A stretch of DNA of 64,000 nt from Candidatus Limnocylindrales bacterium (lineage in GTDB: Bacteria; Moduliflexota; Moduliflexia; Moduliflexales; JAUQPW01), in NCBI GenBank assembly GCA_035559535.1, contig DATMBG010000042.1, positions 1 to 64,000 of the forward strand, in the 5' to 3' direction. Below, one piece after another: positions 29,959-59,906 of the stretch. A program made the translations under genes and the position numbers. How positions within the stretch are numbered: the first letter of the stretch is position 1; every line of letters begins with the position of its first letter. A model generated the notes under the pieces. That model did not search any database, was not told the origin of the DNA, and was given only the letters and a program-made list of their open reading frames with translations.

Positions 29959-30189
29959 GAAAATCTCTACTCCCGGTCAGATACTCTTTTTCGTGAAGGG
30001 GAGGTAAGGGATTTCTCCTAAGGTTCAGGTGGGAGGTTTAAGGCTTTTAAAAATCCCACGTAAGGTACCGACTAAGAGCTAAGAGGCTTAGAAGGTAAAG
30101 AGGTAGATAACGGATCCAAGATCGCGAAATGGGAAGAAGTAGATCTTTGTTCCGTAATCTCCGGATTTAGGTTGAAAAGGAGAATCATT

Positions 30190-30684
30190 ATGCGAGCAAC
30201 TATGAGATTACAGGTCGGTGATGAAGCACCGGACTTTACCCTTCCGGCCACGGGTGAAACTGCCGGAAAAGGTCAAGAGCGAAAGAATATCAGTCTGAAG
30301 GATTATCGAGGGAAGAAAAACGTACTCCTGGCTTTTGTTCCTGCGGCCTTTACAAAGGTTTGAAGTGCCCAGATGCCTGCTTACGAGGAAGATCTGGCCG
30401 AGTTTAGCAGGTATGACACCCAGGTACTGGGTATCAGCACGGATAATGTACCTTCCCTGGAGAATTGGGCGAAAAGCATGGGTGGGTTATCTTATCCACT
30501 TCTGAGCGACTTCTGGCCCCATGGTCAGGTTGCCCTTAAATATGGAATCTTAAGGGAAGAGGGGATATGTGAGAGAGCCCTGTTTGTCATTGACAAGCAA
30601 GGAATTATTCGATATATCGATATCCACCCCATCGGGGACCAGCCGGATAATGCTGAAATTTTCGAGGTGTTGAAAAAACTCTAG
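30190..30684 (+). CDS. Peroxiredoxin (AhpE/AhpC-TSA family); candidate selenoprotein (U58)
   Basis: ORFs 30172-30363 and 30373-30684 are in frame. The joined sequence [14 protein letters not shown] puts TGA 30361-30363 at the peroxidatic Cys of PxxxTxx[10 protein letters not shown] and ERALFVID follow. Confidence 0.9.
30369..30397 (+). promoter_or_regulatory. Candidate SECIS hairpin of the peroxiredoxin
   Basis: CCAGAT/ATCTGG lower stem, CCT/AGG upper stem, loop starting with G 15 nt after the UGA. Confidence 0.5.
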
Positions 30685-42565: not shown

Positions 42566-43150
42566 ATGGGGTATTCGTTTAATAAAATGACCGATGAAGA
42601 GCTCATGGCTCAAGTTCAGAGGGGGGATCAGGCTGCCTTTGAGGAATTATTCAAACGCTACGATCGAAAAATCTTCAATTACTTCCTTCGTTACCTGGGA
42701 GATGAAGAGTTGGCTAAAGACCTTTTTCAAGAAACCTTCCTCCGGGTGTTTCAATTCAGCAAGTCCTATAAGCCGACCACTCACAGTGGACGTTCCTCTT
42801 CTTTTGCAGCCTGGCTCTATACCGTTGCCCGGAATGTGTATAGAAAACAATGGGGACGAGAACCGGTTGAGGGGCGTATGGGAGAGTCCACGTGGGAGAT
42901 GTTAGAAGAAGTTCCAACCCCTAACGCCACGCCTCAGCAGGCAAGGGCCGATCAGGAATTGGTGGAAAAGATCAAACAGGCCCTGGACGCCCTTCCTGAA
43001 AGCCAGCGGGAGGTGGTGATCCTTCATAAGTATCAGGGACTCAGTTATCCTCAAATCGCTCAAGTCCTGGGATGCTCGATAAGTTCTGTGAAGCAAAGGG
43101 CTTTCAGAGCCTATCAGAGCCTCAGGCAGCAATTAGCCGAATATGCCTAA
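42566..43150 (+). CDS. ECF RNA polymerase sigma factor
   Basis: TDEELM, GDQAAFEEL, DLFQETFL, FAAWLYTVARN, LPESQREVV..GLSYPQIA. Confidence 0.93.
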   Translation: MGYSFNKMTDEELMAQVQRGDQAAFEELFKRYDRKIFNYFLRYLGDEELAKDLFQETFLRVFQFSKSYKPTTHSGRSSSFAAWLYTVARNVYRKQWGREPVEGRMGESTWEMLEEVPTPNATPQQARADQELVEKIKQALDALPESQREVVILHKYQGLSYPQIAQVLGCSISSVKQRAFRAYQSLRQQLAEYA

Positions 43151-44084
43151 AGAAGAAGGTGAAACGAACATGTGTAACTCCATTGTTGAACAACTGCCCG
43201 CTTATATCGCCGGGGAGCTGGGGGCTGAAGAGAGGGGAGAAGTAGAAAGACATCTGGCTCACTGCGTCTCCTGCACTTCAGAGCTTAAAGCCTTTCAGAG
43301 AACCTGGGATCTGCTGGATCAATGGGAGGATGTGGTCCCATCTCAGGAGCTTCGGAACAGTGTCCTGGCTCAAGTTCAGAAATTAACCGATGCCAAAAGG
43401 ACCAGAAGAGTCGATGGGTGGAGGTACTTTAAAGGCTTTTCCCACATTGTGTATGGCACCTTGACAGCCGTCCTTTCTGTGTTGCTTCTGGTTAGTAAGG
43501 GCGACCCGGCGGGTCGCCCCTACACAGAACCGTTAACCCTTGAGTTTATTCTGGGCTTTAGTGTACTCTGGACCGGCCTTTATATCCTGGCTTTCTGGTT
43601 GGCCGCCGGGAGGGGAGATCCGACAGTTTCACCTGTAAACTTCGATAAAGTCTTTGGACCTGTAGACTTAGCCCGTATTACCTATGTAGGATTGGTTGCC
43701 ATTGTCATTTCCCTGGTTATCTCCTGGCTGGTTCCCATCCACAGTGTCGTAAAATTCTGTCTAACCCAACCCGGCTTGCAGGGGATCAAGGATAAAATCT
43801 CCATAACCGGGTTCTATTTTCTGTTTGGAGGATTGTATGCCTGGATTCCCTTGCTGATGGTAGCTTCCTTTGAAGGAAGAAAAGTCTCTGGGAGCCCTGT
43901 CAGCTACGGGGTATTAACCGGGGTTATCTTTGTGCTCTTAATGGTACCGGGAATTTTCCTTCAATGTGGCTCTTTAACCCTGGGTATGCTGGTAAGTTGG
44001 ATCTTAGGGACGGCATTGGGATCCATGGCCGGGGGTGTTACCGGCTATTGGATCGCGTTCCGGACCCGGGAGGTTTCCTTATGA
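43143..44084 (+). CDS. Zinc-binding (zf-HC2/ZAS) anti-sigma factor with multi-pass membrane domain
   Basis: HLAHCVSC (HxxxCxxC); overlaps the ECF stop codon; about 6 TM helices with two loop Cys. Confidence 0.82.
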   Translation: MPKEEGETNMCNSIVEQLPAYIAGELGAEERGEVERHLAHCVSCTSELKAFQRTWDLLDQWEDVVPSQELRNSVLAQVQKLTDAKRTRRVDGWRYFKGFSHIVYGTLTAVLSVLLLVSKGDPAGRPYTEPLTLEFILGFSVLWTGLYILAFWLAAGRGDPTVSPVNFDKVFGPVDLARITYVGLVAIVISLVISWLVPIHSVVKFCLTQPGLQGIKDKISITGFYFLFGGLYAWIPLLMVASFEGRKVSGSPVSYGVLTGVIFVLLMVPGIFLQCGSLTLGMLVSWILGTALGSMAGGVTGYWIAFRTREVSL

Positions 44085-44323: not shown

Positions 44324-45157
44324 ATGAAAACGATTACGACTTTTTCAGCTTTGATTCTCTTTTTAATAGGATCCTTTGTTTTACAGAATATGGTTGCAGC
44401 GGACGTCCCGCTTCAAAAAACAGTTCTCAAAATCCAAGGCATGGTCTGCGAAGCATGTCCGCCCAAGATTAAAAAAGCCCTGGAAGGGTTAGATGGCGTG
44501 AAGAAAGTAGAGGTTAGCCTGGAGAAGGCCGAAGCCTATGTGGAATCGGAACCGGGAAAAGTTACCACCGAACAGATGATACAGGCAGTGGACCAGGCCG
44601 GATTTAAAGCTTCTCCGGCAGCAGAGAATTTTTCAGAGATAACCTTGAAGGTGGAGAATATCAAAGGACCCGAAGATGAGCTTAAGATCAAGCCGGCCTT
44701 GGAGAAGATAGAAGGGGTGAGAAAGGCTTTAGTCGATGCCGAGAAAAAAGAGGTGTTTATAGACTATCTAAAGGATAAGGTAACGGTTCAACAGCTCACC
44801 CAGTCTTTAACCAAGCTAGGCTATCCCCCTCTTTCCCCCTTAACGACCCAGGTAGGGGATTTCCTGGTAACCTTACAGATCCATCCAAAACCTATCAAAG
44901 ACCAGGAAGTCCATTTTGACGTAATCTTACAGAGCTCTGATGGGAAACCTGTCTCCGATGCAGAGGTTCAAGTGGATTTGAGTATGCCCGGGATGACCAT
45001 GGGGGAGATGCGATTTAAAGCGGAACCCGCCGGAGAGGGACGGTATACAGGAAAAGGGAAGTTTTCCATGGAGGGCAAATGGAGAATTGCCATCCGAATT
45101 AATCAAGGGGGACAGAAAAAAATCGCCAACTTCGATATGGAGGTTCCTGAGCAGTAG
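44324..45157 (+). CDS. Exported MerP-like HMA protein: HMA (GMVCEAC), Cys-less HMA and YtkA/FixH-like domain
   Basis: Signal peptide; GMxCxxC; second ferredoxin-like repeat with GPED; LSMPGMTMG...GRYTG..FSMEGKW. Confidence 0.82.
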   Translation: MKTITTFSALILFLIGSFVLQNMVAADVPLQKTVLKIQGMVCEACPPKIKKALEGLDGVKKVEVSLEKAEAYVESEPGKVTTEQMIQAVDQAGFKASPAAENFSEITLKVENIKGPEDELKIKPALEKIEGVRKALVDAEKKEVFIDYLKDKVTVQQLTQSLTKLGYPPLSPLTTQVGDFLVTLQIHPKPIKDQEVHFDVILQSSDGKPVSDAEVQVDLSMPGMTMGEMRFKAEPAGEGRYTGKGKFSMEGKWRIAIRINQGGQKKIANFDMEVPEQ

Positions 45158-45210
45158 GGGGTAGGGCGTTGGCCCGTTGGCCGGCAAATACCCAAAAAGG
45201 GGGTGTTCCC

Positions 45211-45735
45211 ATGAAAGATTTAAAAAAAATTTTATTAAGCCTTTTATTAACCTTTACTCTCATAGCTGCCTTCCTTCCTAAGGCAACTGTTGCCGAAATT
45301 GAAAAGGCTGTTATTAAAGTCAAGGGAACTTTGAGGTGTGTATTCTGAGCTTATGGGATTGACAAATCCGTGGGACGCCTGGAAGGCGTCAAGAAATCTG
45401 AGACCGATTGGAAAGCCGGTTTAACCGTGGTTACCTTCAAGGAAGGGGCCTCGTTGGATCCCAATCAACTGGCAAAAGCCATGGACGCAGCCGGATTTGG
45501 AGCGGATGAGATTACCCTTATCGCCAGGGGAAGCCTGACCGAAGAGAAAGGCTATCCGGCCTTTAAGGTCAGTGGCAGTAATCAAATTTTTCTGCTGGCA
45601 GAGAACGAAGTCCTCAACCAACTTAAAGCCTTGGGCTCCGGGAAAGAAGCAACAATCACAGCCAAAGTGGAGATGAAAGAAGAGGGGACTCCATTTACCC
45701 TGATCCTTGAAAAGGTTGAGTCGCCTACCCTGTAG
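45211..45735 (+). CDS. Exported HMA domain protein; candidate selenoprotein (CVFU, U46)
   Basis: ATG 45211 with signal peptide reads ...VKGTLRCVF*AYGIDKSVGRLEGV; TGA 45346-45348 is in frame with ORF 45370-45735 and aligns with Cys in in-window paralog 58613 (PYCAYGLEK). Confidence 0.85.
45349..45390 (+). promoter_or_regulatory. Candidate SECIS hairpin(s)
   Basis: GGATT-GACA-AATCC, then perfect GACGCCT-GGA-AGGCGTC after the UGA. Confidence 0.5.
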
Positions 45736-45821: not shown

Positions 45822-46883
45822 ATGGGAGAGTTTCTTAAAGAAGTTCTAATATTTATCTATGCCACAGCTAACCATACCTTTTTAATGATGTATTGGGTTT
45901 GGCTTCCGGCTTTTCTCCTCTCCGGCTACCTGTTCACCCGATGGCATCGGGATCCGGTTGATAAGATTCTGCAGGATCGGACCTTGACCTTTAACTCTCT
46001 TTTGCAGGCTGTCAAGTTAGGTGCCTCTTATTCCACGGACCGTCGTAAGGGGCTGGCGGCTGTTGTGGGTTTATTTGAAAAAGGGGTGGTCCCTTTTCCC
46101 CTGATTTTCGCGTTCTGGCTCGCAAGCCAGCACCTGATTCTTTATTCCCTCTCCTTTTTCATGGCCCTGGTTGGAGGCGAGTTCTTTGTGGGACCTGCCG
46201 TGGCCGCGTTGGCTATGATAAGCTTGACAACCCTTTTCTTGAGCCAGATTCCCGAGAATACCTGGGAAGAGGCCAGGAAGCGGTTACGTATCTCCTCACC
46301 CTCCATCCCCCTCTCCCAAAGCTTTGGGAGAGGGGACATAAGGGGTGTGGGTAACCCTCTTCCACAAAGCTGGGGAGGATATTTTCGATATGTAGGCAGG
46401 GAGATCAAAGTGATCTGGAAGAACGTCATCTTGGGGATTATTCTGGCAGGGTTTATTGCGGCCGCCGGACGAACCGAATGGTGGATAGATTTCTCAACAG
46501 TGGGCGGTGGCGGAGTTTTCACGGAAATTTTAAACGTAATTCTCGGAGCGACTATTTCTCTGGTCATCCCCTTATCCCCGGTGGGACATCTCTTCGTAGC
46601 TGCTTTCCTTTGGAAAACCTATACCGTAACCTACGGAGGGATTTTGGGCTTTTTTCTGGCCAGCGCCCTGGACCTCAGAAATTTCTGGGCTTATGGGAAG
46701 CTCCTGGATCCCAAACTGGGGTTGACCGTGGAAGCTTTGGGATTTGCCTCGGCCATCCTGGGTGCTTTGGTCGTGGTGGTCCTGCTCCGGATCGTGGGAT
46801 TTGAAGTAACCCACGCTCCGTTGTTCCATGAGTACGTGGATAAGATCATGATGTTCTTCTCCCTGGGGGGAAAGATGATGTAA
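45822..46883 (+). CDS. Predicted permease (DUF318/ArsP-like architecture)
   Basis: Two TM bundles separated by a soluble loop; IWKNVILGIILAGFIAA, YGGILGF. Confidence 0.6.
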   Translation: MGEFLKEVLIFIYATANHTFLMMYWVWLPAFLLSGYLFTRWHRDPVDKILQDRTLTFNSLLQAVKLGASYSTDRRKGLAAVVGLFEKGVVPFPLIFAFWLASQHLILYSLSFFMALVGGEFFVGPAVAALAMISLTTLFLSQIPENTWEEARKRLRISSPSIPLSQSFGRGDIRGVGNPLPQSWGGYFRYVGREIKVIWKNVILGIILAGFIAAAGRTEWWIDFSTVGGGGVFTEILNVILGATISLVIPLSPVGHLFVAAFLWKTYTVTYGGILGFFLASALDLRNFWAYGKLLDPKLGLTVEALGFASAILGALVVVVLLRIVGFEVTHAPLFHEYVDKIMMFFSLGGKMM

Positions 46884-46899: not shown

Positions 46900-47811
46900 G
46901 TGAAAAAGGTTATGCTTTATATGGCTCTATCCAGCTTTTTAATCCTGGGAAGTGCTTTCTCAACCCCTCACCCCTTTGGTCCCCCTCTCCCAAAGCTCTG
47001 GGAGAGGGGGAAGGGGGTGAGGGCTGCCACCCCAGATTGCCGAATTGCCTTCCATACCAAGAGGGGAGAGAAAGAATTTAGAATTTCTACCATTCGAATA
47101 GACGGAACAGATATAAAGGACCTGACCTCGGGCCACTGGGACAGTAATCCCTGGTTTTCTCCGGATGGAAAGCAAATCGTCTTTGACCGGGATGAGGAGA
47201 TTTATATCGCGAACACCGATGGAAGTGAGCCGAGAAATCTGACCCATAACCCAAAAGCTAACTCCTGCCCGACCATCGCTGGAGGTAAGGTCGCTTTCCA
47301 GACGAACCGGGATGGGAATTTTGCGATCTATGTGGTGAATACGGATGGAACCGGACTGCAACGATTGACCCAGGAACCATCTAACAATGCCTGTCCGGCC
47401 TTCTCTTCCGATGGAAAGCGACTCGCTTTTGTCTCGGATCGGAACGGCCCCATGGAGATCTACGTAATGAATATTGACGGAACCGGACTCAAACGGCTCA
47501 CTTCTAACGCTGGAAATAACATGGATCCCGCCTTCTCCCCCGATGGGAAAAAGATCGTCTTTACTTCGGACCGAGATGGAAACTTTGAGATCTACCTCAT
47601 GGACAGCGACGGCCATAATCAAACCCGGCTTACCTATAACAATACGTCCGATATCCAACCTGCTTTCTCTCCCGATGGGAAACAGATTGCCTATGAGCGG
47701 GGTGGCAATATTTATGTGATGGACCTTGAGAAACGAGAAGAAAGGCCACTGACCCAGGGAGCTGTATACCGGGGCGGTCCTTCCTGGGATCCTAACTGTG
47801 TTTCTGAATAA
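46900..47811 (+). CDS. Exported TolB-like PD40 beta-propeller protein
   Basis: Repeated PAFSPDGKxIxFxSDRDGNFEIYxM motifs; signal peptide. Confidence 0.88.
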   Translation: MKKVMLYMALSSFLILGSAFSTPHPFGPPLPKLWERGKGVRAATPDCRIAFHTKRGEKEFRISTIRIDGTDIKDLTSGHWDSNPWFSPDGKQIVFDRDEEIYIANTDGSEPRNLTHNPKANSCPTIAGGKVAFQTNRDGNFAIYVVNTDGTGLQRLTQEPSNNACPAFSSDGKRLAFVSDRNGPMEIYVMNIDGTGLKRLTSNAGNNMDPAFSPDGKKIVFTSDRDGNFEIYLMDSDGHNQTRLTYNNTSDIQPAFSPDGKQIAYERGGNIYVMDLEKREERPLTQGAVYRGGPSWDPNCVSE

Positions 47812-47827: not shown

Positions 47828-48436
47828 ATGAAAAGTTTTAACCTTTTTTCAACCCTTCGACCAGCCTGTCCTGAGCGAAGCCGAAGGGCTCAGGACGCAG
47901 CCTGGCTGAGTATAGCTCTAACGCTTTTGATCTCGCTGTTTTCTTTACACCCAAGTTCGGTTTATGCTGAGGACCTTCGGAAAGTGACCATCAAGGTAGG
48001 TTGGATGCTCTGTGAAAAGTGACCTCCGGCGGTGAAAGCAGCTTTGGAGAAGCTGGAAGGTGTAAAAAAAGTTGAGGTCAGTCTGGAGAAGGCTTCAGCT
48101 TATGTGGAGTATGAGGCTAGAAAGGTCACTCCGGATCAGATGGTAGCGGCAGTGAACCAGGCGGGATATATGGCGTTTCTTCCTCCCAAGGATCTGGTGG
48201 AGATCACGTTAGCCATCGAAGGTCTCAAGGGTCCTGAGGATGAGCTGAAAATCAAACCGGCCCTGGAGAAGGTGGATGGGATCAGGAAGGCTTTGGTGTA
48301 TACAAAGGAAAAGGAGGTCTATGTGGAATATATGAAAAATCAGATTACCCTTCAACGGATCACTGAAGAGATCTCGAAACTGGGCTATAAGGTGATCCTG
48401 CCTTCTGTTGAAGGGAAAGAAAGGTGCCAAAGATAA
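47828..48436 (+). CDS. Exported MerP-like tandem HMA protein; candidate selenoprotein (CEKU, U65)
   Basis: ORFs 47828-48022 and 48032-48436 are in frame; WMLCEK*PPAVKAALEKLEGVKKVEVSLEKA aligns with paralog 44324 GMVCEACPPKIKKALEGLDGVKKVEVSLEKA. Confidence 0.9.
48023..48055 (+). promoter_or_regulatory. Candidate SECIS hairpin
   Basis: CTCCGG..GAAA..TTGGAG stem-loop, or the alternative CAGCTT-TGGAG-AAGCTG. Confidence 0.45.
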
Positions 48437-49102: not shown

Positions 49103-49762
49103 TTGAAAGCAGGAAAATTTAGTCTACTATCTACGCTGATGGCATTGATTTGTTGTTTTGGCCCTATAGCCCTATTGGCTATAGGGCTGGGAAGTGCCGG
49201 ATTAACCGTTGGCTTGTTAAAATATAAAAGGGTTTTTCTCTCTCTAGGTCTAACAGCTTTGGCTTTTTCCTATTATCTATACTTTCGAGAGAAGACCCGC
49301 TGTACCACCCAGGGATGCCAGATGGTCAACACGAGGTTTAACAAGGCCTTGTTGATCTTTTCAACCCTCACGGTCCTGACCTTTGTGGTTTTTTCTTATC
49401 TCCCTTACTCCCATGCCAATCATCCGTCATCGGACCAGGCAGCTTTGGTTGCCGCCGCTTCTACGCCTCAAGTGCTCTATTTTTGGGAACCCTGTCCCAC
49501 CTGCGCAGTCTTAAACCCCCTTGTAGAAAGCCTGGAGAAAACCTACCAGGGAAAAGTACGCTTCCGGTGGGTCAATATGATCACAGATGATGACTCGCTC
49601 CGGCTGGCCCGGCAGGAAAATCTAAAGGCAATTCCTTATCTGGTCTTTAAATCCGCGGATGGGCAGCCGGTGGACTATATCGTTGGTTTTTTTACTTACG
49701 AAACAGCCAAAGAGAAGATTGAAAATCTTTTAAAAAACAGAAAGCAAGATCAGAGAGGTTGA
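49103..49762 (+). CDS. MerT-like transporter fused to a thioredoxin domain
   Basis: ICCFGPIALLAIG, loop CTTQGC, three TMs, then WEPCPTC...AIP thioredoxin fold. Confidence 0.8.
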   Translation: MKAGKFSLLSTLMALICCFGPIALLAIGLGSAGLTVGLLKYKRVFLSLGLTALAFSYYLYFREKTRCTTQGCQMVNTRFNKALLIFSTLTVLTFVVFSYLPYSHANHPSSDQAALVAAASTPQVLYFWEPCPTCAVLNPLVESLEKTYQGKVRFRWVNMITDDDSLRLARQENLKAIPYLVFKSADGQPVDYIVGFFTYETAKEKIENLLKNRKQDQRG

Positions 49763-49842: not shown

Positions 49843-50433
49843 ATGAGAAATCGGCCAAAACAAACCTTCGTTCCATGGGCAGTCCGCGTCATCCTGGGAA
49901 GTTTTATTCTTTTCATTTTGATGCTCTGGTTTGTAGTAAAACCTGGAGAGGCTGAGAATCAGGCTTTAAAAGCCCTTGGGGGATCAGAGGTTAAGGAAGC
50001 TCTAGAAGCCCCGGATTTTATCATACAAACTCCAGATGGAAAAGCGCTTCACCTGAAGGATTATCGGGGCAAGGCCATTCTCCTCAACTTTTGGGCGACC
50101 TGGTGTGGCCCTTGTGCCAAGGAGCTTCCTAAAATGGCCAAGCTTTATGAGCAGTATAAGGATAAAGGGTTCGTTCTGATAGGGGTATCCCTGGATTTTG
50201 GGAATCCGGAGGTGGTCAAAGCATTTCTGGAAGAACGTGGATTAAATTTTCCGGTTGGCATCGATACAGAAAAGGAGGCGGTTAAAGCCTATGGAGTTCG
50301 CGGACTTCCCACCAGTTATTTTATCAATCCACAGGGGAAGGTGGTTGGATGGCTGACAGGAGAGAGGGACTGGGAGGGTGAGGCCGCCCATCATTTAATC
50401 AAGTCCTTGTTAGACCAAGCCCCTAAGGGGTAA
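49843..50433 (+). CDS. TlpA/ResA family membrane-anchored disulfide reductase
   Basis: APDF, LNFWATWCGPCAKELP, YGVRGLPTS. Confidence 0.92.
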   Translation: MRNRPKQTFVPWAVRVILGSFILFILMLWFVVKPGEAENQALKALGGSEVKEALEAPDFIIQTPDGKALHLKDYRGKAILLNFWATWCGPCAKELPKMAKLYEQYKDKGFVLIGVSLDFGNPEVVKAFLEERGLNFPVGIDTEKEAVKAYGVRGLPTSYFINPQGKVVGWLTGERDWEGEAAHHLIKSLLDQAPKG

Positions 50434-53529: not shown

Positions 53530-53638
53530 GTCAAACGTCTCGTTTGATTAGGAAAAGTCAGGGATCAGATCCAGAGAACCTGGAATGAGTACTTTCTGAT
53601 CTCTCTTACCTGTGAGACCTGGGAAGAGGGGGACTCTT

Positions 53639-56062
53639 ATGAATGAAAATATCTTGACAAACGATGGGCAGGCCTTTGGCTACCCAGGGATTCCACCCAG
53701 GTGGACCTTGAGTTCAAAGGAAGGGGTGGGAACGGCCTATTCCACGTCCAGCCGGGTATGGTTCACTATATCCCATGGCATCCTCACTGAGGTTTACTAT
53801 CCCACCATAGACCGTCCGCAGATCAGGGATCTCCAATTTCTCCTCAGTGACGGCGAAACCTTTTTTCATGAAGAAAAGCGCAACCTGGTTAGCGAAGTCG
53901 AGTACCTCGAGCGAGACACCCTGGGCTATCGCATCGTGAGCACCGACCCTGAAGGGCGATATCGGATCATCAAGGAGATTCTCTCTGATCCTCATCAATC
54001 TTGTGTGTTAGTACACGCCCGAATCGAAGCTATTGAGGCTTCAGAAGATTGGTTAAACCGCTTGCAGGTTTATGTATTGATGGCGCCTCATCTGGAGGTG
54101 GGCGGATGGGGCAACTCAGCCCGGAGGTTTCATGCTGCCGGCTGTGACCTCCTCGTAGCATGGAAAGGCCGTACCTATCTGGCAATGGGAGTGAATGTGG
54201 GGTTCACCAAGACATCTTGCGGCTATGTGGGTTTCAGTGATGGCTGGCAAGACCTCCACGACAACTTTCAGATGGACTGGCAGTTCCAACGGGCTGAGAA
54301 TGGGAATGTCGCGGTCATCGGGCAAATAGACCTTGCGAAAGACAAAGAGTTTACGCTAGGATTGGCCTTCGGTGACGGACTCCACGCAGCAGTAACCACC
54401 CTCACCCAATCACTGAGCGTACCCTTCGCCGATCATCGAGAAAAATACATCGCCCAGTGGTACCGTGTCTGTTGCGATATACCGGAGCTGGATAAGTACT
54501 CCGGGGACGGAGGACGGATCTATCGGATCAGCCATAGCTTGCTGCTGGCCCACGAAGACAAAACCTTTGCGGGTGCCTTGATCGCCTCAGCGAGCATTCC
54601 TTGGGGGGACGCCAAGGGGGATGAAGACCTCGGTGGCTATCATCTGGTATGGACCCGCGACATGGTTCACAGTGTTACAGGATTGCTGGCCTGCGGGGAC
54701 CTGATAACCCCCCGCAGAGCCCTTATCTATCTGGCCTGCTCGCAGCGTCCAGATGGGGGTTTCCCACAAAACTTCTGGCTGGATGGAACGCCTTACTGGA
54801 GCGGCATCCAACTCGACGAGGTCGCCTTCCCTGTGATCCTCGCCTGGAAGCTCTGGAAGGCTGAAGCCTTGGGTGAGTTCGATCCTTACCTCATGGTCAG
54901 GGCCGCGGCCACTTACTTGATTCGTCAAGGTCCCATGACCCAGCAGGAGCGCTGGGAAGAGAACAGCGGATACTCCCCCTCGACCCTTGCAGTGACTATT
55001 GCGGCTCTCATCTGCGCAGCCGACTTTGCCAGATCTCGTAGGCAGGAAAAGCTCGCCGTTTTCCTGCAGGATTATGCGGACTTCCTGGAGTCCCATGTCG
55101 AGCGCTGGACGGTGACGACCCAGGGGGGTCTATTGCCAGAGATTCCCAGGCATTACATCCGCATCCATCCGACGGATATCCACGATCCCGCTCCGGACGA
55201 AGATCCCAATCGTGGCATGCTGGCAATTCGCAACCGGCCACCGGGGGAGCCCTGGGAGTTTCCGGCCAAAGACATCGTCGATGCCGGTTTCCTGGAATTG
55301 GTCCGTTACGGCCTACGCAAGCCAGGAGACCCGCTTATCGAGGATTCGCTCCAAGTCGTGGACGCTGTGCTCAAGGTAGATACCCCCTTCGGTCCCTGCT
55401 GGCATCGCTACAACCATGACGGATACGGCCAGCGTCCGGATGGCGGCCCATTTGAAGGATGGGGAAAGGGACGGGCCTGGCCGCTTCTCACAGGGGAGCG
55501 GGGCCACTATGAGCTTGCAGCTGGCCGCGACGCGAGACCATACATCCGCGCGATGGAGGGATTCGCTTCCAGAGGTGGCCTGCTTCCTGAGCAGGTGTGG
55601 GATGAAGCAGACCGGCCTGAGATCAAGATGTACCTGGGGCGGCCTGCGGGCTCGGCCATGCCTCTGATGTGGGCCCACGCCGAATATATCAAACTGTTAC
55701 GGTCTGTTGCTGACGGCCAGGTGTTCGACCTGATCCCAATTGTAGCCGAGCGCTATCTGGTCGGACGGGGGCGCAAGGACCTTGAGGTGTGGAAGCCAAA
55801 CCGTCAGGTCCGGCAAGTGGTACCGGGGCAGGTGCTGCGGGTTCAGGCACCAGCAGCTTTCTGGCTGCACTGGACGGATAATGAGTGGCAGGACGTTTAC
55901 GATACACGGTCAACGCCAACGGCCCTTGGTATCGAGTTCGTGGATATCCCAATTGCGTTAGAGCAGCGTGCCCCGATCCGCTTTACCTTCCGATGGGTGG
56001 AAGGAGATCACTGGGAAGGTAAAGATTATGCAGTGACCATTGACCACAAGACACCGCGATAA
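53639..56062 (+). CDS. Glycoside hydrolase family 15 (glucoamylase/glucodextranase-like)
   Basis: TEVYYP, ASASIPWG, GYHLVWTRD, QERWEE, LPEQVW, MPLMWAHAEY. Confidence 0.9.
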   Translation: MNENILTNDGQAFGYPGIPPRWTLSSKEGVGTAYSTSSRVWFTISHGILTEVYYPTIDRPQIRDLQFLLSDGETFFHEEKRNLVSEVEYLERDTLGYRIVSTDPEGRYRIIKEILSDPHQSCVLVHARIEAIEASEDWLNRLQVYVLMAPHLEVGGWGNSARRFHAAGCDLLVAWKGRTYLAMGVNVGFTKTSCGYVGFSDGWQDLHDNFQMDWQFQRAENGNVAVIGQIDLAKDKEFTLGLAFGDGLHAAVTTLTQSLSVPFADHREKYIAQWYRVCCDIPELDKYSGDGGRIYRISHSLLLAHEDKTFAGALIASASIPWGDAKGDEDLGGYHLVWTRDMVHSVTGLLACGDLITPRRALIYLACSQRPDGGFPQNFWLDGTPYWSGIQLDEVAFPVILAWKLWKAEALGEFDPYLMVRAAATYLIRQGPMTQQERWEENSGYSPSTLAVTIAALICAADFARSRRQEKLAVFLQDYADFLESHVERWTVTTQGGLLPEIPRHYIRIHPTDIHDPAPDEDPNRGMLAIRNRPPGEPWEFPAKDIVDAGFLELVRYGLRKPGDPLIEDSLQVVDAVLKVDTPFGPCWHRYNHDGYGQRPDGGPFEGWGKGRAWPLLTGERGHYELAAGRDARPYIRAMEGFASRGGLLPEQVWDEADRPEIKMYLGRPAGSAMPLMWAHAEYIKLLRSVADGQVFDLIPIVAERYLVGRGRKDLEVWKPNRQVRQVVPGQVLRVQAPAAFWLHWTDNEWQDVYDTRSTPTALGIEFVDIPIALEQRAPIRFTFRWVEGDHWEGKDYAVTIDHKTPR

Positions 56063-57173: not shown

Positions 57174-58178
57174 ATGAATAACTCTAACAAAGGAAAAATT
57201 ATCTTTGTCTCCATGGCTTTGGTCCTTCTGGCCATAACCGTGATTGGGCTCTTTTCCCTGGCCACGTCTCCGGCTCAGGCCGCCAGTCTCACGCTGGCTT
57301 ACGTAGCCGGACTTTCAATGATCCTGTTACCGTGTACGTTACCTGCTCTGCTTGTAATCGTTCCACTATCCATGGGCAAGGGCTATCAAAAGGGTTTTCT
57401 TATCGCTTTGTTCTTTTCCATTGGAATGGCGATCACACTGACTGCCTATGGAGTAGCTATGGCAGCCCTAGGGAAGATCCTCTATCTGGACCGGGCGACC
57501 CTTTTGATGTGGTTGGTCGCGGGACTGGCGGCTTATCTCTTTGGGCTGTCGGAGTTAGGATTAATTTCCTATAAAGGACCGTCCTATTCCGGGTCTCTGC
57601 CTGGTTTTATGGCAGGATCACCGACTAATTATTTCAAAGCCTTTTTGATGGGAATTCTACTTGGAAACGCCGGGATCGGCTGCCCCAATCCGGCCTTCTA
57701 TGTGTTGCTAACCTATATAGCTGGAATAGGAAACCTTATGACAGGAGGGATTCTTGGACTCATTCATGGTCTTGGCCGCGCCACACCTCTCCTGGCCATC
57801 TCGATCCTGGCCATTTGGGGAGTCAATTCCATGGGGTGGATCCTTAACAAGAAGGAGGCACTGCAACAACTGGTGGGGTGGGGGCTTATTGGTTTTGCCG
57901 CTCTCATCACCCCAAAACCCATCTTCGGCCATGCCTGGTGGGAAGAGTCTATTTTTCATAAAGTTTGGAATAGGGTAGTAATGATTATCGGTGGTGAGCA
58001 GATTGCCGAAAGCGCTTATGTGGAAAAGCAACTGGGCGATATGCCAGTTCATGACCCGTTGCTGCTCTATGGCCCCTGGATCTTTCTGGCCCTGCTAATT
58101 GTAATTCCAATCCTTTGGGGCTATGCTAAAAACCTTCAAAAGAAGGAGGTAAATAGGTATGTGGAAAAAACCGCTTAA
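57174..58178 (+). CDS. CcdA/DsbD-TM family protein
   Basis: AGLSMILLPCTLP and GIGCPNP transmembrane Cys pair. Confidence 0.8.
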   Translation: MNNSNKGKIIFVSMALVLLAITVIGLFSLATSPAQAASLTLAYVAGLSMILLPCTLPALLVIVPLSMGKGYQKGFLIALFFSIGMAITLTAYGVAMAALGKILYLDRATLLMWLVAGLAAYLFGLSELGLISYKGPSYSGSLPGFMAGSPTNYFKAFLMGILLGNAGIGCPNPAFYVLLTYIAGIGNLMTGGILGLIHGLGRATPLLAISILAIWGVNSMGWILNKKEALQQLVGWGLIGFAALITPKPIFGHAWWEESIFHKVWNRVVMIIGGEQIAESAYVEKQLGDMPVHDPLLLYGPWIFLALLIVIPILWGYAKNLQKKEVNRYVEKTA

Positions 58179-58362
58179 GATTTTGGGTGTGATAGCACTG
58201 CTGGTTCTGATGCCGGTTCTGGTGCAGGCTCATGGCGATGACCAGGTAACGGTAAATAGCCTCTTCGGCCCACTCCTAGCCATTTTTACGATTTTCATCC
58301 TTGTCCCTCTAGGTAAGGTCGCTATTCGAGGGATCAAGAAGCAGAAGGAGGAGAGAATATGA
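58159..58362 (+). CDS. Small hypothetical membrane protein
   Basis: AAGGAGGT SD; signal-like segment ending VQA-HGDD plus one TM. Confidence 0.65.
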   Translation: MWKKPLKILGVIALLVLMPVLVQAHGDDQVTVNSLFGPLLAIFTIFILVPLGKVAIRGIKKQKEERI

Positions 58363-58616
58363 TTCATCTGAAACTACTGACCACCTCTGGTTGTTCTCGT
58401 TGCGACCGGGCCAAACAAGTTATCGAGAAGGTCTGGCCTGATTTTCCCGATGTGAAAGTGGAGATCATCAACCTCATAGATCACGCGGAGCTTGCTGTCC
58501 AGTATGGTGTCATGGTCTCCCCAGCCCTGGTTATCAATGAGAAGGTGGCCTTTGTGGGTGGAGTCAGCGAGAATCAGTTGAGAGAAAAACTCATGCAAGT
58601 CGGAGAGTACCCATGA
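58359..58616 (+). CDS. Small thioredoxin/glutaredoxin-like protein
   Basis: TSGCSRC, YGVMVSPALVIN. Confidence 0.85.
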   Translation: MIHLKLLTTSGCSRCDRAKQVIEKVWPDFPDVKVEIINLIDHAELAVQYGVMVSPALVINEKVAFVGGVSENQLREKLMQVGEYP

Positions 58617-58927
58617 AAGTCTTTTATGTGTCACTGACGGTGATATTCTTACTTGCCCTTGCTGTGACGATCTTGTTAAGATCGGGCTTCCTTTTGGCAG
58701 GAGAGGAAGAGATTATCCTGTCCGTTCCTGGCATCCCTGGCCCCTACTGTGCTTACGGCCTGGAAAAGCGGTTATTAGAGCTGGAGGGGGTTCAAAGGGT
58801 GGATTTGCTTTGGAAAGAAGAGAAAATCCGGGTGGTCGTTGCTCTGGGGAAGAGGGTGACTCTTGCCGAGATACGGGAAGCGATCCAGCGAGCTGACTAT
58901 CCCTATCCTTACACTATCTCACCATGA
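58613..58927 (+). CDS. Membrane-anchored HMA protein with a single Cys (GPYC)
   Basis: VPGIPGPYCAYGLEKRLLELEGV. Confidence 0.72.
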   Translation: MKVFYVSLTVIFLLALAVTILLRSGFLLAGEEEIILSVPGIPGPYCAYGLEKRLLELEGVQRVDLLWKEEKIRVVVALGKRVTLAEIREAIQRADYPYPYTISP

Positions 58928-59906
58928 AAAGATTTGGGATTCTTATAGCTCTGGCGATTGTTCTAGCAGTCCTTTTCTTTAGCCTGTTTCCGATAGATTC
59001 GCTTCGCTTACTACAAGTTATATCTCCCAAAGAGACGTATCGGGCTATCTTGCAGTGGGGCCAGGAAGGAGAAGGAGCAGGAAACTTTCGTCACCCTATG
59101 GGGCTTGCTTGGGAAGGCGGATTTCTTTACGTGGCTGATGCAGAAAACGGAGCGATTGAAAAGTTCCAAGACGACGGATCCTTTGTGCCCAATGGAAGGG
59201 TTTTAAAAGACCGGTAGCTGTAGCAGCGGTAGGAGATTTCGTTTATGTCGCCGATTTTCTCGCCGATCAAATTTCTAAGCTCCATAACGATGGTACCCTA
59301 ATTGTTCAATGGGGGCAGCATGGAAAAGGCGATGGGGAATTTGACGCCCCTACTGGAGTCGCGGCAGACCACTACGGTCAGGTTTATGTGACCGATTTTT
59401 ACAATCACCGGGTCCAGAAATTTACCGCTGATGGAAAATTCCTGCTCCAGTGGGGAAGCAACGGCCGTTGGAGTGGGAGATTCCATTACCCTACTGATGT
59501 GGCCGTCAATAACCAAGGCGAGGTCTTTGTGGTGGATGCCTACAACCACCGGATCCAGAAATTTACTCGAGATGGACACTATCTTACCAAATGGGGTGGG
59601 ATCAGTTACGGCCTTTCAGGGAAATGGCCTGGCTGGTTTCGTCTGGCTAAGGCAGTGGCAATTGATCAGGAAGGCTATGTTTATGTGGCAGATGCCTTCA
59701 ATCATCGGGTGCAGAAGTTTACGGGCCAGGGGAAACTGGTTAGCTGGTGGGGAGGACTTGGCAGTGACCTGGGCCAGATTCACTATGCGGCTGGAGTTGC
59801 TGTAGACACGCAGAGATCTGTCTTCGTGAGCGATTTCTTCAACAACCGAATTGAAAAATTTGTCTCAATGGTTCCAAAACAATCGAAAAAGAATATTATT
59901 CCTTAA
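58924..59906 (+). pseudogene. NHL-repeat protein interrupted by a single-base frameshift near 59187
   Basis: NHL repeats in both 58924-59217 and 59388-59906; the second frame is open from AQWKGFKRPVAV at about 59187. Confidence 0.75.

Follow-up and report, generated by a model that had tools for sequence, protein, structure and literature searches.

Does the TGA codon that interrupts a reading frame in the mer island of Candidatus Limnocylindrales bacterium end a gene or encode selenocysteine, and what would the product do? The frame occupies positions 45211-45735 of a 64,000-nucleotide stretch of contig DATMBG010000042.1, referred to here as the window, and is a single gene that open reading frame (ORF) callers cut in two. 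It is very probably a real selenoprotein gene. Taken as a whole, the locus is best explained, with moderate confidence, by an exported two-domain selenoprotein that performs MerP-like capture in a mer island.

The frame that begins with ATG 45211 reads MKDLKKILLSLLLTFTLIAAFLPKATVAEIEKAVIKVKGTLRCVF, followed by TGA at 45346-45348 (codon 46) and AYGIDKSVGRLEGV, and ends with TAG 45733-45735; the junction is VKGTLRCVF-TGA-AYGIDKSVGRLEGV. The list of ORFs under translation table 11 contains the piece 45370-45735 alone (GTG start, 121 residues), which is in frame with the TGA. Protein databases hold the gene as a 45-residue N-terminal piece (P0007) and C-terminal pieces of 99-109 residues, and a word-index search for protein homologues returned two truncated pieces and did not reach the family itself. 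A preliminary description, made from the sequence alone, had joined ATG 45211, a signal peptide and VKGTLRCVF-TGA in frame to the ORF 45370-45735, and this is borne out by the sequence, the readthrough translation and the ORF list. The N-terminus has the appearance of a Sec-type signal peptide, with MKDLKK, a hydrophobic stretch and the site ATVA/E, and the structure model places a helix at residues 2-19, within the predicted signal peptide. The orthologue from a sister species (G001) aligns over residues 1-173 with one TGA, and the profile of the 150-member family matches positions 45211-45726 at 173.3 bits with one TGA inside.

Conservation and proposed decoding of the in-frame TGA

The orthologue in the sister species, which belongs to the same genus, is 90% identical and has its one TGA at the same place as in the 5.6-Mb host genome of the window. 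Eight codons before the TGA differ between the two genes. Six of the differences are conservative replacements, all at residues 6-22 of the signal peptide, and codons 23-45, which encode the mature part ahead of the TGA, show only two changes, both synonymous. After the TGA, 33 codons differ, 22 of them synonymously and 11 non-synonymously. The codon changes therefore indicate purifying selection on both halves of the gene in one frame.

The TGA is also kept outside the genus. A metagenome scan with a five-row alignment matched 273 stretches, three of which encode relatives with approximately 50% identity; all three, from high-GC organisms, contain TCVF-TGA-AYGIDKS behind a signal peptide. Contig X6 from an independent run is 93% identical, covers positions 45145-45445, and has the TGA unchanged, and runs X2 and X3 reach the 3' end of the locus only. 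In 185,579 species genomes, the degenerate pattern C-x-F-TGA-[AV]-[YF]-G-x-[DEN..]-[KQ] was found at 24 stretches; an estimate based on its information content gives ~17 by chance. No open frame is present in 18 of these stretches. The other six belong to the family: one is from the same genus, a Poribacteria metagenome-assembled genome (MAG) contains two paralogues (CPF-TGA-AYGL), and three are from Acidobacteriota MAGs (C[TN]F-TGA-A[YF]GV). Altogether, the TGA is kept in G001, L006, L007, L008, L016, L017, L027, L029 and L030, as well as in contig X6.

An exhaustive phmmer search returned 806 proteins at E<=0.001, of which 62 reached E<=1e-10. The query was aligned with 149 of 152 proteins (P0107, P0137 and P0152 were left out), and the TGA column, where the preliminary description expected homologues to have cysteine or TGA, is covered by 136 of the 149 rows. 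Cysteine occupies both metal positions in 134 of these, and the family consensus at the site is G-[LM]-x-C-P-F-C-A-Y-G-[LV]-E-K-K-L. Of the two remaining rows, P0146 has arginine and P0017 tryptophan (motif W-H-L-W) at the TGA column. Because P0017 also has a tryptophan where its cluster mate P0157 stops, its motif almost certainly represents TGA codons read under another code, that is, a UxxU form, in which U denotes selenocysteine. Among the 13 rows off the column, 12 begin past the motif and one is P0007, the window's own N-terminal piece. Since the selenocysteine forms are present in the databases only as fragments, the cysteine forms look overwhelming in this count. The paralogue at 58613-58927 in the window (29% identity, E 4e-8) has a single cysteine aligned on U46, as had been proposed from the sequence.

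A profile search with readthrough of stops matched 15 of 401 genomes, and eight of the matches span both domains of the protein. Five of these eight have TGA at a metal-site column, in the arrangements CxxU (G000 and G001), UxxU (G095 and G058), and UxxC (G179). The UxxU forms read U-P-T-U in L034 (G095) and U-S-L-U in L040 (G058), to which U-H-L-U of P0017 can probably be added, and the UxxC form in L035 (G179) reads U-P-F-C. A FastTree phylogeny was calculated from 10 selenocysteine and 96 cysteine rows, excluding sequences that were truncated or longer than 200 residues and those whose kept region was not 120-175 residues long. Four changes of the selenocysteine label are needed in the tree and the starred branches force only two; many forks are unresolved, and the number of independent origins of selenocysteine is therefore not claimed. 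A protein-atlas search with a cysteine-form relative reached only clusters named 'heavy-metal-associated domain-containing protein', and a search of a plasmid collection gave one weak match to a cysteine-form relative, confined to the HMA (heavy-metal-associated) domain.

The host genome encodes SelA (540 bits), a SelB wing domain in a 637-residue frame, a selenocysteine tRNA with the anticodon tca, and SelD (388.6 bits), the gene of which itself contains a TGA. TGA terminates 528 of the 2297 long ORFs of this genome; the standard code is therefore in use, and UGA46 represents a local recoding event. The SelD gene (G000:C29:76668-77594) has its TGA at 76695, followed by the hairpin GCCCAAC-GGU-GUUGGGC at +17..+33, counted from the U of UGA, and is thus a selenoprotein gene itself. 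Within the window, ARAGORN found no tRNA, and Rfam gave no match at gathering thresholds.

Bacterial selenocysteine insertion sequence (SECIS) hairpins are reportedly located shortly past the UGA and have a G in the apical loop, as described for bSECISearch by Zhang and Gladyshev in 2005. The preliminary description had named two hairpins after the UGA. Both are present, but conservation in the same register with compensatory changes was found for the second only. Sixty nucleotides from the UGA onwards could be aligned for seven loci of three lineages with no gaps. Columns 28-35 and 39-46 form eight pairs, of which four are invariant, with 95.8% of the cells paired, and the eighth pair, +28/+46, forms in the relatives. 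Compensatory changes are present at pair 29/45 (CG, GU, AU, and GC) and pair 35/39 (UA and AU), pairing falls to 28-47% when the partners are slid against each other, and the central CGCC/GGCG is kept despite a difference in the encoded peptide (RLEG vs RQSG). In the SelD gene and the second HMA gene of the same genome (47828-48436), the UGA is likewise followed by a 7-bp stem closed by a GGN triloop. The first hairpin has a counterpart at about this place in all three lineages, with a shifted register and 80% of the cells paired, and a different hairpin, at +21..+39, is present in the Poribacteria genes.

Three points count against the second hairpin as the recoding signal. The folding energy of the 65-nucleotide stretch after the UGA is not significant alone (z = -1.13, matched by 21 of 200 shuffles). 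The loop at +36..+38 is 9-12 nucleotides further from the UGA than those of the SelD gene (+24) and the second HMA gene (+27), and the covariation is based on six distinct sequences from three lineages. The second hairpin stands above chance because of its conservation, not its folding energy, and is the probable SECIS element by comparison of the aligned loci. UGA46 would then be decoded as selenocysteine by the SelA, SelB, SelC, and SelD of the host, with the hairpin at +28..+46 as the most likely signal. The TGA itself is not an error, because it is kept in relatives and in an independent contig, cysteine replaces it in homologues, the selenocysteine machinery is present, and the hairpin is conserved.

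Two domains of the predicted protein

The readthrough protein of 174 residues is divided into a signal peptide, an HMA domain, and a C-terminal domain. As the preliminary description had suggested, the protein belongs with the HMA proteins: the Pfam model HMA (PF00403) matches residues 41-96 across the TGA with 30.7 bits against a cut-off of 24.8, selenocysteine being read as cysteine. The structure predicted by AlphaFold2 from the 150-row alignment has a predicted local distance difference test score (pLDDT) of 93.8 and a predicted template modelling score of 0.81. It contains a strand at residues 30-37, a helix at 44-55, strands at 60-66 and 71-76, a helix at 84-93, and a strand from residue 98. 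Residue C43 lies in the beta1-alpha1 loop of the model and U46 in the first turn of helix 1, and the two metal ligands of MerP are placed in the same manner. In comparisons of the HMA region, Foldseek matched CopZ (6ff2_A) with a TMt of 0.89 and MerP (1osd_A) with a TMt of 0.82, and VIA-align matched 4a48_A with a Z of 8.4 and a root-mean-square deviation (rmsd) of 1.4 over 66 residues, and 1afi with a Z of 6.1. The profile score, the modelled fold, and the modelled placement of the two-ligand motif all identify the product as an HMA protein.

The preliminary description had left the beta-rich C-terminal domain without an assignment, and the structure prediction now identifies it as an oligonucleotide/oligosaccharide-binding (OB) fold. 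Modelled alone, the domain has a pLDDT of 89.7 and the order of elements E-E-E-H-E-E. The VIA-align matches include PriB (3fhw_A, Z 8.1, rmsd 2.6 over 74 of 75 residues), single-stranded DNA-binding proteins (SSBs), YgiW (1nnx_A, Z 7.1), NlpE (2z4h_A, Z 6.8), and SilF (8bwv_B, Z 6.5), and OB folds make up almost all of the 50 listed rows. Foldseek found no match to the C-terminal domain alone at E<=0.001, and because of this the assignment is based on VIA-align and the topology; no Pfam family matched the domain. The modelled domain is thus assigned to the OB fold at the level of fold only, with middling Z values. Its conserved columns are G107, V120, Q125, F127, and L138, none of which is a metal ligand. 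Of the envelope proteins with OB folds among the matches (YgiW, NlpE, and the SilF/CusF group), some have been linked to metal; the Met, His, and Trp ligands of the CusF type are not conserved here. The lack of a conserved metal ligand suggests that the domain is probably a docking or oligomerisation module.

Genomic setting and proposed role

The gene is surrounded by mer functions and redox proteins (Table 1). The conserved module is smaller. In the orthologues with approximately 50% identity the order of ECF (extracytoplasmic function) sigma factor, anti-sigma factor, selenoprotein gene, permease, and PD40 propeller is kept without the two genes that are inserted in the window. The sigma and anti-sigma pair lies directly upstream in L006 and L007, and the permease and PD40 genes lie downstream in L006. 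The permeases of the window and L006 are 51% identical and contain no cysteine and one cysteine, respectively, the latter not being conserved; no NCBIfam model matched the permease at 45822-46883. Comparison of the anti-sigma factor with those of L006 (2070-2918) and L007 (1853-2698) showed that two cysteines in hydrophobic segments are kept, C206 and C275 in the window and C177 and C244 in the orthologues. The cysteine pair could be a sensing site for thiophilic metals.

Table 1. Positions of the gene, its parts, and its neighbours in the window
Feature	Position	Strand	Remarks
Gene, very probably of a selenoprotein	45211..45735	+	174 codons; UGA at codon 46; TAG stop at 45733-45735
Shine-Dalgarno-like AAGGGGG	45197..45203	+	7 nt 5' of ATG; identical in sister species
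Predicted signal peptide	45211..45294	+	residues 1-28; cleavage after ATVA; from sequence features
HMA domain (predicted)	45298..45510	+	residues ~30-100; ferredoxin-like beta-alpha-beta-beta-alpha-beta
Putative metal-site motif C43-V-F-U46	45337..45348	+	UGA codon 45346-45348
Hairpin 1	45356..45369	+	GGAUU-GACA-AAUCC; +11..+24 from U of UGA
Hairpin 2 (candidate SECIS)	45373..45391	+	7-bp stem GACGCCU/AGGCGUC; GGA loop; +29..+45
C-terminal OB-fold domain (predicted)	45508..45732	+	residues ~100-174; b1-b2-b3-helix-b4-b5
MerC-like gene	start 41917
ECF sigma factor	42566-43150	+	Pfam
Membrane anti-sigma factor with zf-HC2	43143-44084	+	Pfam
MerF	start 43964		94 bits, cut-off 50
Exported HMA-HMA-YtkA protein	44324-45157		CEAC motif; NF041115 107.9 bits; Cys paralogue of 47828-48436
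ArsP_1-type permease	45822-46883	+	Pfam; no Cys
TolB-like PD40 propeller	46900-47811	+	Pfam
Second exported HMA protein	47828-48436	+	C62-E-K-U65; NF041115 94.9 bits, cut-off 95
MerT-thioredoxin fusion	49103-49762	+
TlpA/ResA-like exported thioredoxin	49843-50433
MerA	start 51976		542.7 bits, cut-off 454
MerB	start 56075		193.6 bits, cut-off 193
DsbD-like membrane protein	57174-58616
Trx_3	58359
Single-Cys HMA paralogue	58613-58927

Relatives that contain CxFU occur in two other lineages. Their neighbours in Poribacteria are DsbD, a further HMA protein, an outer-membrane barrel of the MetA type, NHL repeats, and a regulator of the MerR family, for which Hg-MerR is the best model with 149.1 bits against 150.85. 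In Acidobacteriota a thioredoxin-like AhpC/TSA gene lies directly downstream, and a barrel of the same type is present.

Several further genes of the window deserve a description in their own right. The gene at 47828-48436 is a second selenoprotein candidate. It encodes a signal peptide and two HMA domains, the first of which contains the TGA (48020-48022), and the hairpin CAGCUUU-GGA-GAAGCUG lies at +20..+36. A peroxiredoxin-like ORF at 30172-30684 (+) has an in-frame TGA at 30361 (FTKV-U-SAQ); the AhpC/Prx models match it weakly, and PrxU gives 67.7 bits against 270. MerA contains no N-terminal HMA domain and ends with CCAE. In the segment 51976-56752 (+), a gene that reads from its sequence as GH15 glucoamylase-like (53612-56062) is located between MerA and MerB, which is odd for a mer island. 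The HMA paralogue at 58613-58927 (+) contains GPYCAYG, in which the first cysteine is replaced by glycine, and follows the DsbD-like and Trx_3 genes and precedes NHL-repeat genes (59388-59906). This grouping resembles the Poribacteria locus, which contains DsbD, HMA, HMA-U, barrel, and NHL genes.

We propose the following role for the protein. The signal peptide would direct it to the periplasm, where the mature protein would consist of the HMA fold and the OB barrel, with C43 and U46 in the geometry of the CxxC site of MerP and CopZ. A thiophilic metal ion could be held between the thiolate of C43 and the selenolate of U46, and in the host genome this metal would most likely be Hg(II) or an organomercurial. 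The protein would act in a high-affinity periplasmic capture step, after which the metal may pass to the MerF, MerT-thioredoxin, and MerC-like importers and then to MerA and MerB. The periplasmic TlpA/ResA-like and DsbD-like proteins may hold the Cys-Sec pair reduced, and the OB domain would probably be used for docking or oligomerisation. We consider the chance that the role is MerP-like capture of mercury or another soft metal to be slightly better than even.

Other features of the locus weigh against this proposal. The score on the MerP equivalog model is 28.5 bits, far from the cut-off of 92.55. No mer gene was found in the 3.5-7.8 kb visible around the orthologues with approximately 50% identity, and therefore the module may answer to another metal or stress. 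The permease, which is the best-conserved neighbour of the gene, lacks cysteines, so that it provides no obvious thiol relay for Hg(II). In addition, the transfer of a metal from a site with sulfur and selenium ligands to one with two sulfur ligands should be thermodynamically uphill, and sequestration therefore fits as well as a relay.

As a soft-metal chaperone, the protein could handle copper, silver, gold, or cadmium in place of mercury, and its location in the mer island would then be secondary. The HMA domain scores about equally on the CopZ models and MerP (30.4 and 28.5 bits), CopZ and PacS domains match it best in structure, the visible flanks in L006 and L007 are free of mer genes, the gene upstream in the window has a YtkA domain, and the OB-fold matches include the Cu(I) protein SilF. 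The metal specificity of an HMA site is not assignable from sequence alone, and mer functions flank the gene on both sides in the host genome; moreover, the Poribacteria regulator is best matched by the Hg-MerR model, though under its cut-off. We regard a chaperone for another metal as unlikely.

The pair of cysteine and selenocysteine could instead be a redox centre. The protein would then either carry reducing equivalents or act as a selenol/thiol oxidoreductase in the periplasm, together with its DsbD-like and TlpA/thioredoxin-like neighbours. Most bacterial CxxU and UxxC selenoproteins are redox proteins, and thioredoxin-like or DsbD-type genes are located beside or near the selenocysteine forms in three lineages. 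A 2026 review attributes to most selenoproteins a presumed role in redox reactions (PMC13188914). However, the fold is that of HMA, not thioredoxin, and all the listed relatives of solved structure use the CxxC of HMA as a metal site. Maintenance of a metal site in the reduced state would account for the nearby reductases just as well, and mer genes and a MerR-type regulator are further neighbours. A redox function is accordingly quite unlikely in our judgement.

The kept order of ECF sigma factor, anti-sigma factor, gene, permease, and PD40 propeller, in the window and in L006 and L007, would fit a periplasmic sensing partner of the sigma/anti-sigma pair. Once loaded with metal, the HMA-OB protein would signal to the membrane anti-sigma factor, and the module would sense metal stress in the envelope in a selenium-dependent manner and not serve as a detoxification step. 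The two conserved cysteines in the hydrophobic segments of the anti-sigma factor and the OB domain, which has no conserved ligand and could dock, are consistent with such a sensor. Nevertheless, the Poribacteria and Acidobacteriota members have no sigma/anti-sigma pair in the 8 kb seen, and target genes often adjoin their ECF sigma factor without being sensors. A sensor that replaces detoxification appears to us distinctly improbable. Similarly doubtful is a broader proposal that the HMA-OB protein is the metal receptor of an envelope module, serving either as a selenium-dependent soft-metal sensor that signals to the anti-sigma factor or as a near-irreversible, selenium-based periplasmic mercury sink. 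If this proposal held, the family would have switched repeatedly between cysteine and selenocysteine (CxxU, UxxC, and UxxU), tuning the chemistry of the site.

Least of all can the TGA be a true stop in a pseudogene, between two separate small genes, or from an assembly error, an extremely improbable explanation to which the pieces given by gene callers and the insignificant folding energy downstream lend themselves, since at least nine further loci of four lineages and the independent contig retain the TGA, selection is purifying both before and after it, the HMA fold requires both halves, the TGA column holds cysteine in nearly all homologues, and the selenocysteine machinery is complete.

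Relation to known systems

MerP-like capture by an exported selenoprotein, the explanation that we prefer, can be compared with several described families. That selenium occurs at HMA metal sites is already known from curated models and reviews. The NF041115 model, UxxU_metal_bind (seleno)protein, describes proteins that likewise have an HMA-type domain, selenocysteine in the metal motif, and heavy-metal contexts. The gene at 44324-45157 in the island belongs to it (107.9 bits) and that at 47828-48436 nearly does (94.9), whereas the product of 45211-45735 reaches 25.0 bits where the cut-off is 95, has CxxU in place of UxxU, and contains a second domain. Among seven other selenocysteine-form proteins, five two-domain relatives scored 28.3-46.5 bits and the single-domain L046 scored 67.5; the two-domain relative L029 gave no match at E<=1e-5. 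The preliminary description's proposal of a second, independent CxxU family of HMA proteins in the island agrees with these scores, and with the 34% identity, limited to the HMA domain, between the products of 45211-45735 and 47828-48436. The NF045683 model for a MerT/CopZ fusion-like selenoprotein matched with 26.4 bits against 375, at its CopZ-like end only.

In the literature, a table of the Global Ocean Sampling (GOS) selenoproteome contains an entry 'Mercuric transport protein MerP', a predicted selenocysteine-containing MerP-like protein with two sequences and no motif (Zhang and Gladyshev 2008, PMC2398784), so that selenium in a periplasmic mercury-binding HMA site is already a published idea. 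A 2026 review lists NF041115 and a MerT-type entry, and the words 'HMA' and 'MerP' are absent from its main text (PMC13188914). MerT-family selenoproteins are mentioned in a preprint by Haft from 2022. The two-domain HMA-OB family appears to be uncatalogued in the searchable literature and models, a scope outside which the supplements of selenoproteome papers lie, because its selenocysteine forms fall short of the NF041115 cut-off.

The family adds an exported two-domain protein, with HMA and OB folds, to the bacterial selenoproteome, one that is widespread and systematically mis-annotated. A new curated model would be justified, so that annotation pipelines stop splitting such genes. The natural CxxC, CxxU, UxxC, and UxxU versions of one metal site make it a good system for studying the benefit of selenium in the binding of mercury and other soft metals. 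The known picture, in which selenocysteine can stand in for cysteine in heavy-metal sites, is unchanged.

The C-terminal domain superposes with YgiW (1nnx), the C-terminal domain of NlpE (2z4h), and SilF/CusF (8bwv), all of which are envelope proteins, with Z values of 6.5-7.1. The sequence identities are 4-12%, and the DNA-binding OB folds of PriB and SSB score equally or higher; these proteins share with the C-terminal domain a common fold, not a common family.

The CopZ/Atx1-type chaperones (PDB: 6ff2, 2qif, and 4a48) are the best structural matches of the HMA domain, with TMt values of 0.85-0.89 and rmsd values of 1.5-1.8 over 69 columns. In contrast to the predicted exported two-domain selenoprotein, they are cytoplasmic, single-domain, cysteine-only proteins that handle Cu(I). 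MerP (TIGR02052; PDB: 1afi and 1osd) resembles the protein in its signal peptide, HMA fold, two-ligand beta1-alpha1 motif, and position among mer genes. The motif of MerP is GMTCxxC, whereas the second ligand here would be selenocysteine, CVFU lies within the family consensus CPFCAYG, and an OB-fold domain is added. MerP is a small, single-domain protein encoded beside merT, whereas the present protein has 174 residues and two domains, and its gene is located between those of the HMA-HMA-YtkA protein and the cysteine-free permease.

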